64,000 nt of DNA from Escherichia phage JP4. Below the pieces are notes generated by a model. The model ran no database searches, was not told the DNA's origin, and saw only the letters and a program-made list of their open reading frames with translations. Positions 8,056-18,370 of this stretch are shown one piece after another. The first letter of the stretch is position 1, and every line of letters begins with the position of its first letter. The position numbers and the translations under genes are program-made. Where the stretch lies: the sequence record PQ330092; one strand, 5' to 3'.

Positions 8056-8131
8056 CATCAGGACGGGGAACAAAACAAGTAACCCCGTTAAGTAGTCCAG
8101 GAGTAAGACATACGAAAACCTCCCCTGATAA
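8056..8131 (+). ncRNA. Conserved about 80-nt transcribed leader/candidate sRNA (second copy at 18290-18370)
   Basis: Starts at TSS of promoter about 8027-8055; ACGGGG...CCCCGT hairpin; no ATG; followed by a second promoter. Confidence 0.3.
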
Positions 8132-8198
8132 AAAAGATTGACAATAGTTTGAAGTACTGATAAAATAATCACATCAACTACTGATAAGGTAATACAAA

Positions 8199-8399
8199 AT
8201 GAAACAATTCACTTTCGGCGTAGTAGGTTTCCCAGTATCTAACGGTGTTTACAATTCAGAACGCGGTGCAAAAAATGCAGCAAGCCGGGCGTATGGTAGT
8301 CAGCGTGATCTCCAAGTAGGTTATATCAGTACTATTAGTAACATGTTTATTCCAGTATCTCAGCGTAAAGCTGGTAGCATGAAATGGGAAACTATCTAA
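8199..8399 (+). CDS. Hypothetical protein (66 aa)
   Basis: Two tandem promoters upstream with a conserved 80-nt leader element; SD TAAGG. Confidence 0.7.
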   Translation: MKQFTFGVVGFPVSNGVYNSERGAKNAASRAYGSQRDLQVGYISTISNMFIPVSQRKAGSMKWETI

Positions 8400-8408
8400 T
8401 AAAATAGA

Positions 8409-8436
8409 TTGACAAAGTATCTTAGTACTGTATAAT
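8409..8436 (+). promoter_or_regulatory. Consensus promoter TTGACA-16-TATAAT
   Basis: Read directly. Confidence 0.7.
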
Positions 8437-8468
8437 ACTTACATCAACCACTGATAAGGAAACATAAA

Positions 8469-8744
8469 ATGCGGATTCTACTGACAGCTAACGAAATCGA
8501 GCAAGTACTGACTACTAACCTGGAAGACTGGAAACGTGAAGCAGATATCCAGGCGGTTCAATGGCTTAACGATAAGTTAACGCCGGATGACTTAAGCAAG
8601 ATTGTAGATCCTCAATTCTACGAAGATATCCACGACACCGCGTTAAGCGTCGAGGATGTACTTGATAAGCATTTTATTGATATTGATTTGCAGGTTTACG
8701 GTCGTAAAAACTTTATCACTATTCACGACATTTACAATAATTAA
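8469..8744 (+). CDS. Hypothetical acidic protein (91 aa)
   Basis: Promoter 8409-8436; SD TAAGGAAA. Confidence 0.7.
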   Translation: MRILLTANEIEQVLTTNLEDWKREADIQAVQWLNDKLTPDDLSKIVDPQFYEDIHDTALSVEDVLDKHFIDIDLQVYGRKNFITIHDIYNN

Positions 8745-8747
8745 GTA

Positions 8748-8775
8748 TTGACAAAGTATCTTAGTACTGTATAAT
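8748..8775 (+). promoter_or_regulatory. Consensus promoter TTGACA-16-TATAAT
   Basis: Read directly. Confidence 0.7.
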
Positions 8776-8831
8776 AGTTTACATCAAGCGAGGGGAATGG
8801 TTCCCCTCCTAACAAAGAGAGAGAAATAAAA

Positions 8832-9155
8832 ATGACTATGATCCTTACCCAGAAAGTAGAACTGAAAATTGTAACCTCCTTTGACATTAAAGTTAATCGC
8901 TGGACTGATCGGAACGGTAACACTTACCACTCTTGCTACGTGTCCGCGTTAATTGGCGACCGCTGGGAAGACCTGGGACATGAAACCTTTACTTACGGTT
9001 ACGGTACACAAGGCGAATACACGGGCTTGGAGATCATTAAAGAAACCGTTATAGGTTTCAACCCGAAAGAAAAAGTTATTCACCGCATCGAGGAAGAGAT
9101 CAACAAAGAAATAACAGTTCGCTACCACGATGTAAAACGTAAGAAAGACATGTAA
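8832..9155 (+). CDS. Hypothetical protein (107 aa); paralog of 1985..2308
   Basis: Promoter 8748-8775, hairpin, SD; shared motifs with 1985..2308. Confidence 0.7.
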   Translation: MTMILTQKVELKIVTSFDIKVNRWTDRNGNTYHSCYVSALIGDRWEDLGHETFTYGYGTQGEYTGLEIIKETVIGFNPKEKVIHRIEEEINKEITVRYHDVKRKKDM

Positions 9156-9250
9156 TAGAATCCATTTAAAGTACTATTTGACATTGCCCAGATAGTACTT
9201 TATAATAGACTCTAACTTGTAGTACTAACTTAACTAATAGGATGTATACC

Positions 9251-9646
9251 ATGATTACTAAATTCTACGCTACCCGTGAAGCTGCCCGTATTGTTGCACG
9301 CGAGGAAGGCGAAACATTTAAAGACATGGGCAAAGATGCACCGAAAGGTCAACGCTGGGCCGTACAGTTCAAAGAGATCTCTGATATTGTGAATTCACCG
9401 GAGCCAGTACTAACAGCAGCAGAACTAAAACGAGCGGATTTACTGGCGTCAATACTTGATGCACAAGATGAGTTTATCGCTGATTCTGATATCAAAGTAC
9501 AGACAAACCATACCGCATGGACTCACGCGGATCACCTGGCAAACCTTAAGCGTCCAAGTGAACTGATTCGCAACCAGAAAGAGATCCGACACGACCGTAA
9601 GGGTAATCGTGTAACAGTATACAGTAAACGCCGCCAGGTTATCTAA
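9251..9646 (+). CDS. Hypothetical protein (131 aa); paralog of 17420..17686
   Basis: Start refined to MITKFYATRE after SD AGGA; terminator 9669-9693 downstream. Confidence 0.7.
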   Translation: MITKFYATREAARIVAREEGETFKDMGKDAPKGQRWAVQFKEISDIVNSPEPVLTAAELKRADLLASILDAQDEFIADSDIKVQTNHTAWTHADHLANLKRPSELIRNQKEIRHDRKGNRVTVYSKRRQVI

Positions 9647-9668
9647 TAACTTGCAGTACTAACAACAC

Positions 9669-16429: not shown

Positions 16430-16522
16430 TTGATTCAGTACTGAATAATAGTACTCCTATATAGAAAGATAGTTCCCCTGGATTGATTCAGTACTGAATA
16501 ATAGTACTCCTATATAGAAAGA
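16430..16522. repeat. Two exact 40-bp direct repeats separated by 13 bp
   Basis: TTGATTCAGTACTGAATAATAGTACTCCTATATAGAAAGA x2, immediately upstream of promoter 16543-16571. Confidence 0.8.
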
Positions 16523-16542
16523 AAACTATTTTAAAAGTATTT

Positions 16543-16571
16543 GTAGAAAGTACTTGCACCGTACTGATAAA
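16543..16571 (+). promoter_or_regulatory. sigma70-like promoter CTTGCA-17-TATAAT preceded by 2 x 40-bp direct repeat
   Basis: Read directly. Confidence 0.65.
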
Positions 16572-16636
16572 AGCGTATAATGTTTTACATCGAGAGCGGG
16601 AACACTTCCCGCTACACATTAAGAGAGATTAAAACG

Positions 16637-16999
16637 ATGGCGACTCAAATCAATAAAATCATGCTTAACCTGGTAAACTTCCGCGAAGAGATGAAAGGTC
16701 TTCCGGCTGAAACTGTAAAAATTCACATTGCAGCTTATCGGGAACTTATTGCAATGTTGCCGCTTAAGCGTGAACAATACGCCGCTACTTTGATGCTTGA
16801 TTCAATGATCCATATAATGATCTCAAATGATTTAACGATGGTTTATCAGTACATGGGCGAAAATTTCGCGGTGTGTAGTAAGCCAGTACCAGGGATGGCA
16901 ACTACTGAGGAATTGCACGGTTTAAATTTAAAGCAAGATGCATGGGATAATATGCCTCGTTTCCTGGTATGGGCTGACAGTGGCAAAATTTACAAATAA
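16637..16999 (+). CDS. Hypothetical protein (120 aa)
   Basis: Start refined to MATQINK; promoter 16543-16571, hairpin GCGGGAACACTTCCCGC, SD AAGAGAGA. Confidence 0.7.
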   Translation: MATQINKIMLNLVNFREEMKGLPAETVKIHIAAYRELIAMLPLKREQYAATLMLDSMIHIMISNDLTMVYQYMGENFAVCSKPVPGMATTEELHGLNLKQDAWDNMPRFLVWADSGKIYK

Positions 17000-17091
17000 G
17001 TTTAATAAAGTACTTGCAAACTAAGTTTAAAAGCGTATAATGTTTTACATCAGGTGGGGAATAGTTCCCCACTATATAAGAGGATTAAAAA

Positions 17092-17331
17092 ATGGCTAAA
17101 TCAAAAATGTTCTTAGGTCACAAAAACAAAACTCATTGGAATGTAAGCCTTTGGATTAATAACGATGAATCATTATACCGGTTGGCCCAGGACTTTATTA
17201 ACGATAGCACTAATCGCAATGATGCGGCCCGTCATATGATGTTATTTTTAGAACAGACTGGACAAGATAAAACACCGGACGGATTCAAATATAGCACTAC
17301 TGCGATCCGTGCGGCGATGGTTGGAATGTAA
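17092..17331 (+). CDS. Hypothetical protein (79 aa)
   Basis: Promoter about 17012-17040, hairpin, SD AAGAGGA. Confidence 0.7.
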   Translation: MAKSKMFLGHKNKTHWNVSLWINNDESLYRLAQDFINDSTNRNDAARHMMLFLEQTGQDKTPDGFKYSTTAIRAAMVGM

Positions 17332-17419
17332 TAGAATAGAATTTATTTAAAGTACTATTGCACGCTGATAGTACTTTATAATAGTGTTTTATTCATACAC
17401 CAACGATAAGGGCAACAGC

Positions 17420-17686
17420 ATGAATATTAAGTATTTTGCGACGCGTGAACAAGCTCGGATCGCCGCACGCCAGGACGGGGCAACGTTTAAAGATATGGGC
17501 GTACAATCGGAACGTGGTAAACGTTGGGCCATTGTAAAGCGTAGTACCGCCAGATCATTACAGTACTGGTTAGCGGCCTTAAAAAGTCCCGATAGTGTAT
17601 CGCGTCGAGTGGTAGAAATAAAGCTCGACCGAAAGGGCAACCGCGTGACCGTGTACCGTACTAAAAAGATTGCAGTACTTGAATAA
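17420..17686 (+). CDS. Hypothetical protein (88 aa); paralog of 9251..9646
   Basis: Start refined to MNIKYFATRE; shared ATRE-x-ARI-x-AR and RKGNRVTVY motifs. Confidence 0.65.
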   Translation: MNIKYFATREQARIAARQDGATFKDMGVQSERGKRWAIVKRSTARSLQYWLAALKSPDSVSRRVVEIKLDRKGNRVTVYRTKKIAVLE

Positions 17687-17773
17687 AAAGTACTTGCAAA
17701 CTATGTTTAAAGGCGTATAATGTTTTACATCGAGAGCGGGAACTCTTCCCGCCTATAACCTGGAGTAATAAAA

Positions 17774-18004
17774 ATGACTAATATGTATATGACTGAAGTT
17801 AAAACCGTAAAAGATACTACCACGAATAAAACTACTTACTTACAGCGGATCTGTGGTGTATGGCAACGTATCAGCAAATCAAAGTACTTTAAATTAACAT
17901 CATATGCCAATCGTTCGGATTCATTCAGTACTGAAATAAAAGGTAATAAAGTACACCAATACGGCACTTATTATTATTATAGCCTGGACGCGATTGTAGT
18001 ATAA
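17774..18004 (+). CDS. Hypothetical protein (76 aa)
   Basis: Promoter about 17692-17720, hairpin, SD TGGAG. Confidence 0.7.
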   Translation: MTNMYMTEVKTVKDTTTNKTTYLQRICGVWQRISKSKYFKLTSYANRSDSFSTEIKGNKVHQYGTYYYYSLDAIVV

Positions 18005-18289
18005 GTAGTTTACAAATCTTTACAATTGCCAGTATTGACTTATTTTGTCAGTACTGGCATAATGTATTCATTGGCAGATAAGCCGTAGCCCATAGGGTGC
18101 GGAAGTGTATCTATAGAAAAAGTAGTTTAGTACAGTTACAATTGTGCACCCGGTGGGTTAGCTGTTGTCATGGGGTATATTATACCAGTACTGGATAGTG
18201 CTGTCAATACTTTTTTTTTACTATTCAGTACTGAAAACTATTTTTAAAAAGTACTTGCAAACTATGTTTAAAGGCGTATAATGTTTTAC

Positions 18290-18370
18290 ATCAGGACGGG
18301 GAACGAAATAAGTAACTTCCCGTTAAGTAGCCCAGGAGTAAGGCACACGAAAAACTCCCCTGATAAAATA
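18290..18370 (+). ncRNA. Conserved about 80-nt transcribed leader/candidate sRNA (copy of 8056-8131)
   Basis: About 85 percent identical to 8056-8131 with G-U compatible stem change. Confidence 0.3.

Follow-up and report, generated by a model that had tools for sequence, protein, structure and literature searches.

A conserved pseudoknotted leader RNA behind early promoters of a jumbo coliphage, shared with T7-like phages

The locus raises the question of what is encoded by an element of about 80 nt which, according to an original prediction made from the letters alone, occurs three times behind promoters in the 64,000 nucleotides of Escherichia phage JP4 analysed here (PQ330092; hereafter, the window). 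The window is a genome-end junction of an Asteriusvirus jumbo coliphage. Positions 1-14905 are identical to 20115-35019 (100% identity, offset 20114), on which basis 14906-35019 is the complete left direct terminal repeat (DTR; 20,114 bp, no strand assigned), and window 1-14905 is the tail of the right-hand repeat copy. The physical left genome end is 14906, and three other records begin at the base matching this position; in vB_Ec-M-J, a 21.5-kb DTR is annotated with three element copies inside. All three independent copies were already found in the prediction (482, 8055 and 18288), and the total in the window is five, because 14906-35019 is a direct terminal repeat and the copies at 20596 and 28169 are therefore exact duplicates of those at 482 and 8055. 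The terminal repeat contains all three unique copies (repeat positions 3383, 5691 and 13264), giving a dosage of six per virion, and these open transcription units 2.3 and 7.6 kb apart in a 20-kb array that is entirely rightward. Almost every small gene in this genome has its own promoter, and the element fills one promoter-driven slot.

The shared sequence sits where it had been placed, and its chance origin was excluded: ACATCAGGACGGGGAAC, with up to 3 mismatches, was matched five times in the window (0.07 expected), the 3′ block of the element three times (0.00 expected) and the central block five times (0.01 expected). With a covariance model of the core, the five copies scored 50-52 bits and the next best match in 64 kb scored 8.5 bits. 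The copies and their helices were located as follows.

8055-8129, + strand, element copy A1 (50.1 bits; MFE fold, z = -2.7; covariation)
8057-8062 with 8124-8129, + strand, P1 of copy A1 (MFE fold)
8063-8068 with 8083-8088, + strand, P2 of copy A1 (MFE fold)
8089-8094, + strand, conserved UAAGUA of copy A1
8095-8097 with 8107-8109, + strand, S1 of copy A1 (covariation)
8100-8103 with 8120-8123, + strand, S2 of copy A1 (MFE fold, covariation)
8104-8106, + strand, conserved UAA of copy A1
8112-8118, + strand, conserved ACGAAAA of copy A1
18288-18364, + strand, element copy A2 (50.0 bits; folding; covariation)
18290-18295 with 18359-18364, + strand, P1 of copy A2
18296-18302 with 18317-18323, + strand, P2 of copy A2, including G18301·U18318
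18330-18332 with 18342-18344, + strand, S1 of copy A2, with C-G as the middle pair
18335-18339 with 18354-18358, + strand, S2 of copy A2
482-545, + strand, element copy B, without P2 (52.2 bits; MFE fold consisting of GACG/CGUC plus S2; covariation)
484-486 plus 489-492 with 539-545, + strand, P1 of copy B, with A487 and A488 bulged
507-509 with 519-521, + strand, S1 of copy B, with A-U as the middle pair
512-516 with 531-535, + strand, S2 of copy B (CCAGU/ACUGG)
20596-20659, + strand, exact duplicate of copy B in the left terminal-repeat copy, with its promoter at 20563-20590
28169-28243, + strand, exact duplicate of copy A1 in the left terminal-repeat copy, with promoters at 28137-28163 and 28252-28280

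The element is almost certainly a genuine conserved structured RNA family. Its conserved core reads (U)AAGUAG-GNC-NN-[4-5 nt]-UAA-GN'C-NN-ACGAA(A/C)A-[complement], and its architecture was shown to be a pseudoknot within a three-way junction, in which P1 closes over an optional hairpin P2, the invariant (U)AAGUA and an H-type pseudoknot. S1 is formed by G-N-C and G-N'-C, and S2 (4-5 bp) by the S1 loop and the strand directly 5′ of the returning P1 strand; a strand of the second helix thus lies in the loop of the first, and both helices carry compensatory changes, as expected of an H-type pseudoknot. The unpaired strands UAA (S2a to S1b) and ACGAA(A/C)A (S1b to S2b) are invariant. In the T7-like version, P2 is replaced by a 'stem A', the loop of which bears the 5′ strand of P1. 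The 482 copy, described in the prediction as a more distant relative, is a true one: it shares the core and the logic of P1, and P2 is missing from it.

Four helices (P1, P2 or stem A, S1 and S2) are backed by covariation, with 92-95% of cells pairing as against 14-35% in slid controls. In a set of 28 distinct cores covering all lineages, the S1 and S2 cells were 95.1% paired (17-33% when slid), 5 of the 8 S1 and S2 pairs were altered on both sides, and the covariation score was 0.404 (0.129 for shuffled data), the score of 0.404 being reached by 0 of 500 shuffles. In S2, 4 of 5 pairs were altered on both sides; the middle pair of S1 is A-U, U-A or C-G among the cores and G-C in L086, so that all four Watson-Crick types occur. 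In 27 T7-like sequences, 91.6% of cells were paired (14-35% when slid), with compensatory changes in 11 of 18 pairs (5 of 6 in P1 and 3 of 4 in stem A). RNAalifold recovered P2 and S2 unaided, and MFE folds of the window copies and of fENko-Kae01, which differ in helix sequence, gave P1, P2 and S2. The G·U pairs fit only the + strand transcript, and the folded strand is therefore the transcribed strand; one S2 position has 8 G-U, where the opposite strand would have A·C mismatches. The G-U-compatible change seen in the prediction is real: in the 18288 copy, hairpin P2 contains it as G18301·U18318, together with an added A-U pair. With four helices covarying across many phage lineages and + strand G·U pairs, the proposal of a regulatory or structured RNA is strongly supported.

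The promoters and genes flanking the three unique copies were as follows.

378-399, terminator upstream of the copy B promoter
449-476, + strand, promoter of copy B (TTGACA, 16 nt, TAGAAT; promoter scan; predicted +1 at about 482)
552-580, weak promoter-like site after copy B (promoter scan)
8023-8049, + strand, promoter of copy A1 (TTGCAT, 17 nt, TATAAT; A/T-rich upstream region; by alignment; predicted +1 at about 8055)
8138-8166, + strand, second promoter after copy A1 (TTGACA, 17 nt, TAAAAT, with TG; promoter scan)
8199-8399, phrog_7744, the gene served by the 8138-8166 promoter
18255-18282, + strand, promoter of copy A2 (TTGCAA, 16 nt, TATAAT; promoter scan; predicted +1 at about 18288)
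18373-18400, + strand, second promoter after copy A2 (TTGACA, 16 nt, TATAAT; promoter scan)
18433-19044, phrog_5162, the gene served by the 18373-18400 promoter

All instances examined in context lie directly 3′ of a sigma-70-type promoter and in the orientation of the downstream genes, where rightward early transcription begins, close to the leading end of the genome. That the element begins at the +1 of a promoter, as had been proposed, fits the predicted promoters at 449-476 and 18255-18282 (scan) and at 8023-8049 (alignment); the last was omitted by the scan because its -35 matches at only 3/6 positions, and it aligns column for column with 18255-18282 as well as with the promoters in front of other copies, among them those of muut and A73. 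A further strong promoter usually lies 8-46 nt beyond the element. In the window this second promoter, also claimed in the prediction, is strong after the 8055 and 18288 copies, but only the weak site follows the 482 copy, which runs straight into gene 600-1082. In most lineages the element does lie between tandem promoters (A1/A2 of T7, the two annotated promoters of LIMEzero, myoviruses and jumbo phages). No terminator-like site was found in or just after any window copy, nor a terminator after the element in any flank read from other lineages; no start codon and no ORF of at least 40 aa on either strand is associated with it, and no gene family common downstream of it in all lineages was found. 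An AU-rich single strand (GAUAAAA) follows P1 in the window copies.

The core was found in Vequintavirinae, Stephanstirmvirinae, other jumbo phages of ~350 kb (a second jumbo-phage group also bears the element), Pantoea phage LIMEzero and T7-like phages. Besides LIMEzero and the second jumbo-phage group, 44 myovirus and jumbo-phage records and ~488 T7-like records carry it; one of the latter is T7 itself, which has it in the interval from promoter A1 to promoter A2. Myovirus subfamilies that are otherwise unrelated share the promoter-element-promoter cassette at ~83-93% identity; the core is retained all the way from T7 to the jumbo phages, the flanking promoters being non-homologous. A search of 185,579 species genomes of bacteria and archaea gave two stray T7-like phage contigs as its sole true matches. 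The whole window gave no match to Rfam 15 at gathering thresholds, T7 479-779 gave nothing in Rfam at E <= 10, and the sole Rfam match of window 8040-8150 was a spurious miRNA (E = 7) on the opposite strand. No tRNA, tmRNA or tRNA-like genes were detected in the window by ARAGORN, and a comparison by eye with CRISPR repeats of types I-E and I-F, made with an RNA anti-CRISPR (a mimic of a solitary repeat) in mind, revealed no convincing likeness. The element is a previously uncatalogued, phage-specific and widespread RNA family.

The best functional analogy is the HK022 put RNA (putL and putR). This RNA is ~70 nt long, promoter-proximal, protein-independent and effective over at least 10 kb, and in putL a -10-like element acts as a sigma-dependent pause (PMC9378689). 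Like put RNA, the element lies just past an early host-polymerase promoter, has no ORF or terminator and is read into the early operon. In structure, put RNA has two long stem-loops arranged as a V, stem I forming a triplex, and no pseudoknot, whereas in the element P1 encloses P2 and the crossing S1 and S2; put RNA is represented by about ten lambdoid sequences, the element by virulent phages of several families. Put RNA suppresses pausing and termination through its binding to the beta' zinc-binding domain. With the core model and filters off, the best match in the whole HK022 genome scored 8.8 bits (E = 1.3) and was not at PL or PR. The lambda nut and rrn boxB-boxA leaders also have a structured RNA beside boxA in an early leader, as do some element-bearing phages: a boxA-like sequence follows the core pattern match by 24-39 nt in LIMEzero and its relative L043, CGCTCTTTAACAA occurs in the same leader as the element in T7, and the element-to-boxA distance in T7-like phages is 24 to 440 nt. 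The boxB is a simple hairpin, unlike the pseudoknot of the element, and boxA (GCUCUUUA) was confined to T7-like phages and LIMEzero, with none beside the window copies or any myovirus copy; the single GCTCTTTA in the window (47220) is far from all copies and a chance-level count. A Nus-dependent nut-like site was rejected because boxA does not adjoin the window copies.

An effect on RNA polymerase, whether pausing or processivity, is plausible. The most likely reading, a tentative one made by analogy, is that the nascent element RNA would act on host RNA polymerase like HK022 put RNA. It would fold while emerging from the host enzyme and then act on that same polymerase, so that polymerases started at an element-bearing promoter would become more processive across the long early gene array, with less pausing or backtracking and less Rho-dependent or intrinsic termination; as a speculation, the -10 element of the next promoter might serve as a sigma-70-dependent pause that gives time for RNA folding and docking. 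Since the downstream genes usually have their own promoter and no gene family is shared by all lineages, action on one particular mRNA is unlikely, and the occurrence in unrelated phage lineages, all infecting Enterobacterales and using host RNA polymerase early, points to a conserved host target. The promoter-proximal, co-oriented and terminator-free placement argues for a co-transcriptional role in cis, as do the Nus-factor boxA in the same leader in T7-like phages and LIMEzero, the spacing of the three copies as heads of transcription units in the all-rightward array, and the precedent of put RNA. Against such a mechanism, the fold is not that of put RNA and the core model finds nothing in HK022; moreover, the strong second promoter that usually follows means that most transcripts of the next gene would be without the element, and modifying only some polymerases would bring no obvious benefit. 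Transcription from T7 A1 has been studied in vitro for decades and is not known to show unusual processivity, which also counts against; many of the T7 A1 templates used in vitro retain only the first few dozen nucleotides. Further points against are that several copies per genome and a gene-like promoter slot would equally fit a dosage-dependent trans-acting RNA, and that a pocket for some ligand or protein, with no relation to RNA polymerase, would account equally well for the strong conservation of the unpaired nucleotides.

Nearly as likely as action on polymerase is a trans-acting immediate-early RNA, a decoy or sponge. Set free by RNase cleavage, or accumulating as a stable 5′ fragment, the folded RNA would bind and titrate some conserved protein or RNA of the host, such as Rho or another factor of RNA metabolism, a ribosomal protein or a component of defence, before phage proteins exist. 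Its own strong promoter in an array with one promoter per gene, the dosage from the terminal repeat, and the invariance of the unpaired nucleotides in all lineages beside covarying helices, as for a recognition surface, are all consistent with this, and the cassette identity across unrelated myovirus subfamilies suggests horizontal spread of a self-sufficient module. A free RNA would gain stability from P1, which begins only 2 nt into the predicted transcript, and the T7 leader is cut off the mRNA by RNase III at R0.3. A decoy is opposed by the lack of a terminator or other defined 3′ end in any instance, by the constant co-orientation and continuity with downstream genes, and by copy B, a plain 5′ leader of the gene downstream. 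That P1 starts within ~2 nt of the predicted +1 in myoviruses and jumbo phages, together with an extra hairpin from +2 in T7 and the AU-rich strand after P1, might suit a 5′-end module that shields early transcripts from RppH- or RNase E-dependent decay or directs a specific endonucleolytic cut. This is unlikely, since a simple hairpin would suffice, leaving the invariant unpaired nucleotides and the cross-family pseudoknot unexplained; the downstream mRNAs, their genes usually having their own promoter, would be without the element, and the T7 leader is removed from mRNAs.

In its size, compact H-type pseudoknot, covarying stems and invariant loops, the element resembles the preQ1-I, SAM-II and fluoride aptamers, and the T4 gene 32 leader pseudoknot is similarly built. 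A riboswitch-like aptamer whose pocket binds a small molecule or ion and alters transcript fate is nevertheless quite improbable: unlike those pseudoknots, the element has no Rfam match, no expression platform (terminator, sequestered start site or a signal further on with which it could pair alternatively) and no consistent gene after it, the downstream genes being unrelated to each other. A transcription attenuator or terminator-type riboswitch was rejected, as no competing terminator was found in or just after any window copy or in the flanks of other lineages and GGAG is not conserved. Hardly credible is a ribosome or Shine-Dalgarno sponge or a leader-peptide attenuator, which is contradicted by the comparative data. 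The SD-like CCAGGAGTAAG on which the sponge had been proposed is present as GGAG in the main window copies, but GGAG(U) pairs with (A)CUCC as a strand of S2 and is replaced in relatives (CCAG/CUGG, CCUG/CAGG, CUUG/CAAG, GUCAG/CUGAC), and therefore is not a ribosome site; the missing start codon, ORF and terminator speak against both, and attenuation, as once suggested, is not supported, since none of the sequences read has a terminator following the element. A purely DNA-level repeat, in which a promoter cassette was duplicated or a recombination module spread and the RNA has no function, is strongly disfavoured. The cassette does include both promoters and move between phage lineages, and other exact promoter-hairpin repeats occur in the same region; however, compensatory changes keep four helices while the sequence varies, G·U pairs would become A·C mismatches on the other strand, and the core is shared from T7 to jumbo phages without homology of the flanking promoters. 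The promoter-early stem-loop (PeSL) cassettes of T4-type phages were reportedly interpreted by Arbiol et al. in 2010 as DNA-level recombination modules. PeSL are short early-promoter modules that recur among small early genes in plastic genome regions and are common to several phages, and for the element, too, promoter association and spread between phages were observed; unlike in PeSL, what is selected here is the folding of an RNA, as its compensatory and G·U changes show. A separate 38-nt hairpin-promoter repeat (7895, 11164 and 13422) is the better PeSL-like candidate in the window.

Quite possibly, though we stop short of favouring it, the element represents a new class of protein-independent, immediate-early host-takeover RNA, shared horizontally among unrelated virulent Enterobacterales phages including T7, and working either by reprogramming the host RNA polymerase that transcribes it or by neutralising some conserved factor of the host. 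On that reading, a host-takeover RNA would be made before any phage protein, and, if true, the classic T7 A1 leader would always have carried an unrecognised functional RNA.

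The two conserved blocks of the original prediction (delimited here as 8055-8133 and 18288-18368) and the more distant relative (482-548) were all found as described. When three sub-motifs of the element, a conserved pseudoknot RNA of about 80 nt, were searched for approximately in the window, 5, 3 and 5 matches were obtained (0.07, 0.00 and 0.01 expected from shuffles), without exception on the + strand. A covariance model of the core, run on the window, returned the following five sites at 50-52 bits, with the runner-up at 8.5 bits.

482-548, + strand, copy B
8055-8133, + strand, copy A1
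18288-18368, + strand, copy A2
20596, + strand, exact duplicate of copy B
28169, + strand, exact duplicate of copy A1

The sites at 20596 and 28169 were rejected as independent copies, being terminal-repeat duplicates: window positions 1-14905 equal 20115-35019 at 100 % identity. By BLAST, the window was assigned to the 121Q/PBECO4/G17 group of Asteriusvirus jumbo coliphages. The base equivalent to window 14906 is exactly where three records with defined ends start, and a 21.5-kb direct terminal repeat is annotated from position 1 of the relative vB_Ec-M-J. From the identity of the repeats, these record starts and the vB_Ec-M-J annotation, it follows that the window crosses the genome end-to-start junction (14905/14906). 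The genome has its physical left terminus at position 14906, from which the complete direct terminal repeat (20,114 bp) extends to 35019. The three unique copies all lie within this repeat (repeat positions 3383, 5691 and 13264), so that each virion genome carries six; the vB_Ec-M-J repeat contains the same three copies.

The terminal repeat holds about 50 small genes, all pointing inward, and a near-consensus sigma-70 promoter precedes almost every gene (about 30 on the + strand in 20 kb); only three of these promoters drive the element. The predicted position between tandem promoters therefore amounts to a promoter-driven slot of the element's own. Strong second promoters follow the copies at 8055 and 18288 (8138-8166 and 18373-18400, respectively), but after the copy at 482 there is just a weak promoter-like site, and the element leads without interruption to the gene at 600. 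No ORF of at least 40 aa overlaps any window copy on either strand, no terminator-like site was found inside or just 3' of the copies, and no tRNA or tmRNA was detected in the window by ARAGORN.

Several neighbouring features were also recorded. A perfect consensus promoter (TTGACA, 17-nt spacer, TATAAT, with TG) at 18179-18207 on the - strand, just upstream of the promoter of copy A2, is directed leftward against the rightward array. Identical terminator hairpins (AGCCCACCTTAAACAGTGGGCT plus a T-run) at 378-399 and 1104-1125 bracket the unit of promoter, copy B and gene 600-1082, which suggests a duplicated or mobile cassette. The heptamer AGTACTG, often as the palindrome CAGTACTG, occurs 266 times in the window against about 7 expected (an approximately 38-fold excess; e.g., at 364, 412, 7993, 8153, 18187 and 18227), at about 5.7 per kb in the terminal repeat versus about 2.3 per kb outside, and frequently just upstream of, or within, promoters (AAAAAGTACTTGCA/TTGACA); it could be a regulator binding site or a signal related to modification or restriction. 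An exact 38-nt repeat, AAAGGGATTGACTCCGGTCAGTCCCTTTGCTATTATAT, is located at 7895-7932, 11164-11201 and 13422-13459 (duplicates at 28009, 31278 and 33536; variant at 3875). It forms a 12-bp hairpin with TTGACT in one arm, followed by TATTAT, and is thus a promoter built into a stem-loop, resembling the promoter-early stem-loop cassettes of T4-type phages.

Using the 91-nt element as BLAST query, single copies per genome with 83-93 % identity to those of the window were found in two further myovirus subfamilies, Stephanstirmvirinae (muut, EmilieFrey, outra) and Vequintavirinae (A73, W70, A7_1, A5-4), always intergenic, in small same-strand gene arrays and in the order promoter, element, promoter. 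A degenerate core pattern applied to viral contigs also matched podovirus contigs of about 40 kb, one of them with an unmistakable T7-type A1 promoter. T7 itself carries the motif, unannotated, at 536-593 (about 550 bp from the left genome end), so that the starts of A1 (498) and A2 (626) flank it, and the A2 -35 hexamer forms the 3' strand of its closing helix. The T7 A1-A2 interval as BLAST query retrieved 488 records, from phages of Escherichia, Klebsiella, Salmonella, Yersinia, Citrobacter, Enterobacter, Serratia, Pantoea and Hafnia, in which the conserved block of the interval is the motif itself. A similar 3' end noted by eye in the T7 A2-A3 interval, attributable to promoter duplication, is without S2 complementarity and was not counted as a second copy. 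The core was further located in Pantoea phage LIMEzero (Waewaevirus; 860-897, flanked by two depositor-annotated promoters), in a second group of jumbo phages of about 350 kb (Klebsiella fENko-Kae01, Salmonella 7t3, Munch and others; in fENko-Kae01 at 3626-3663, within an annotated 19.7-kb terminal repeat) and in metagenomic variants (L019, L030, L074, L078/L082). The total is about 540 sequenced phage records from at least six lineages. Pattern matches that failed S1 or S2 pairing, appeared to be coding sequence, or both, were left out as false positives (sequences L006, L015-L017, L031, L046, L066, L067, L070-L072, L076, L077, L080, L083-L085 and L088).

When 185,579 bacterial and archaeal species (one genome each) were scanned, four matches were obtained, of which two were chance matches in coding sequence and two were tiny T7-like phage contigs inside assemblies. 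The motif is, at this stringency, confined to virulent phages, and the idea that it mimics a host leader was rejected. In several GenBank records a 'hypothetical protein' CDS is annotated across the element (BLAST hits H26, H29, H33-H35 and H57; phage A7_1, L005, 2203-2601, on the opposite strand); in view of the covariation of the RNA, such annotations are probably spurious.

The genes downstream of the element are all of unknown function and differ between lineages, with one exception. Gene 600-1082 after copy B (phrog_27871/phrog_20181, function unknown) is homologous to the post-element gene of fENko-Kae01 (L092, 3783-4370), and the same gene start follows the element in the metagenomic sequences L019 and L030; this was the sole conserved element-gene pairing found.

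The common layout consists of P1a (5' strand of the closing helix), the optional P2 hairpin (stem A in T7-like phages), (U)AAGUA, S1a (G N C), 1-2 nt, S2a (4-5 nt), (A)UAA, S1b (G N' C), NN, ACGAA(A/C)A, S2b, 0-2 nt and P1b. S1 and S2 cross, which makes the fold an H-type pseudoknot. Across 28 distinct cores from all lineages, 95.1 % of the S1 and S2 cells were standard-paired, against 17-33 % with the partner slid; five of the eight core pairs change on both sides, and the observed covariation score was reached by 0 of 500 shuffles. As the outer S1 pairs were fixed by the search pattern, the fair tests are the middle S1 pair and S2 only. The former occurs as A-U, U-A, C-G and G-C (the last in sequence L086), plus one C·A intermediate, and S2 as GGAG(U)/(A)CUCC, CCAG/CUGG, (G)CCUG/CAGG(C/U), CUUG/CAAG, GUCAG/CUGAC and CCUG/CGGG. 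For 27 sequences of T7-like phages, a four-helix model was 91.6 % paired versus 14-35 % when slid, with compensatory change in 11 of 18 pairs overall (P1, 5/6; stem A, 3/4). A free-position search for P1 was dropped for a fixed-column test, since shuffled upstream sequence gave helices of at least 5 bp in 60 % of trials. P1 is exemplified by GUCAA/UUGAC, GUCAUC/GAUGAC, GUCGGU/ACCGAC and GAUUAG/CUAAUC in T7-like phages, by AUCAGG/CCUGAU (main type) and AUC..GACG/CGUCGAU (copy at 482) in the window, and by GCGGC/GUCGC (L019) and CGGC/GCCG (fENko-Kae01) elsewhere. P2 and S2 were recovered by RNAalifold unprompted, and P1, P2 and S2 by single-sequence MFE folds. G·U pairs are frequent (e.g., 8 at one S2 position); in the opposite strand they would become A·C, so the folding strand is the transcribed + strand. 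At the helix junction, the invariant unpaired positions (AAGUA, UAA and ACGAA.A) could build a tertiary motif of the UAA/GAN type or one resembling loop E.

No Rfam family was found in the whole window at gathering thresholds, nor in the element or the T7 leader at E <= 10. A likeness to pistol or other ribozymes or to CRISPR repeats was considered by eye only and found no Rfam support; to our knowledge, T7 A1 run-off transcripts have been discrete over decades, which argues against self-cleavage. A repeat acting as DNA only is contradicted by changes of the compensatory and G·U kind and by a core that is conserved among phages with unrelated flanking promoters. The GGAG originally read as SD-like is not a ribosome-binding site: it is one strand of S2, is freely swapped in relatives and has no start codon. 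The suggested attenuation lacks support, as neither a terminator nor a competing structure was found. A boxA-like sequence, CGCTCTTTAACAA, is present in the early leader of T7-like phages (L020, the T7 region, 434-446; T7 coordinates 813-825). In LIMEzero (L091, about 936) and in the related L043 it lies 24-39 nt past the match to the core pattern. BoxA was rejected as part of the element, being found with T7-like phages and LIMEzero only, at a spacing of 24-440 nt, and not near the window or myovirus copies.

The element stands at the extreme 5' end of host-RNA-polymerase transcripts in the immediate-early region of the leading end, and is always read through into co-oriented genes. A second promoter usually lies downstream, so that the mRNA of the next gene itself mostly lacks the element. 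The phages are unrelated and share only the host order and an early dependence on host RNA polymerase. Together with the varied downstream genes, these features are best fitted by an RNA acting on its own polymerase. By analogy with the put RNA of HK022, which counteracts pausing, backtracking and termination over at least 10 kb (PMC9378689), we tentatively propose that the element RNA may act on the RNA polymerase making it. The -10 element of the next promoter might serve as a sigma-dependent pause, as reported at a -10-like element for putL (PMC9378689). Membership of the put family itself was rejected, the core model having no match in HK022, and the two stem-loops of put differ from the architecture of the element.

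A putative decoy RNA acting in trans is doubtful too, yet almost as likely as put-like action: the number of copies, a promoter slot like that of a gene and horizontal spread in the manner of a cassette speak for it; the lack of any defined 3' end speaks against it. Less likely than either are a putative 5'-end stabiliser, which we consider improbable, and a putative ligand-sensing aptamer, to which we give slightly less credence still.

Full-text searching found no description of the element, older subscription papers on T7/T3 being outside its scope, so that an early mention is possible; the papers found to contain the T7 sequence list it only as a template. The element is not discussed in the article on a 2023 screen that covered more than 10,000 viral structured-RNA candidates (PMC10690425). 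We regard it as a new RNA family, probably of a functional kind already known, the phage RNAs that are promoter-proximal and regulatory or are directed at the host. Put-like and decoy action can be tested directly, as methods are in place for T7 genetics, T7 A1 in vitro transcription and elongation-complex cryo-EM, and the covariation shows which mutants would be disruptive or compensatory.

If functional, as is implied by its conservation, the element would count among the noncoding elements with the widest distribution in virulent phages of enterobacteria. Even the T7 A1 leader harbours it, and no transcription template has seen more intensive use in molecular biology. Its position in T7 falls within the short DNA stretch that is already inside the cell when RNA polymerase begins to draw in the remainder; in jumbo phages it is found in the terminal repeat. 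The element RNA would be the first product that these phages can make upon cell entry. If it is put-like, RNA-only control of host RNA polymerase would be common and not a curiosity of HK022; if it is a decoy, it would represent a new kind of RNA-based host takeover.
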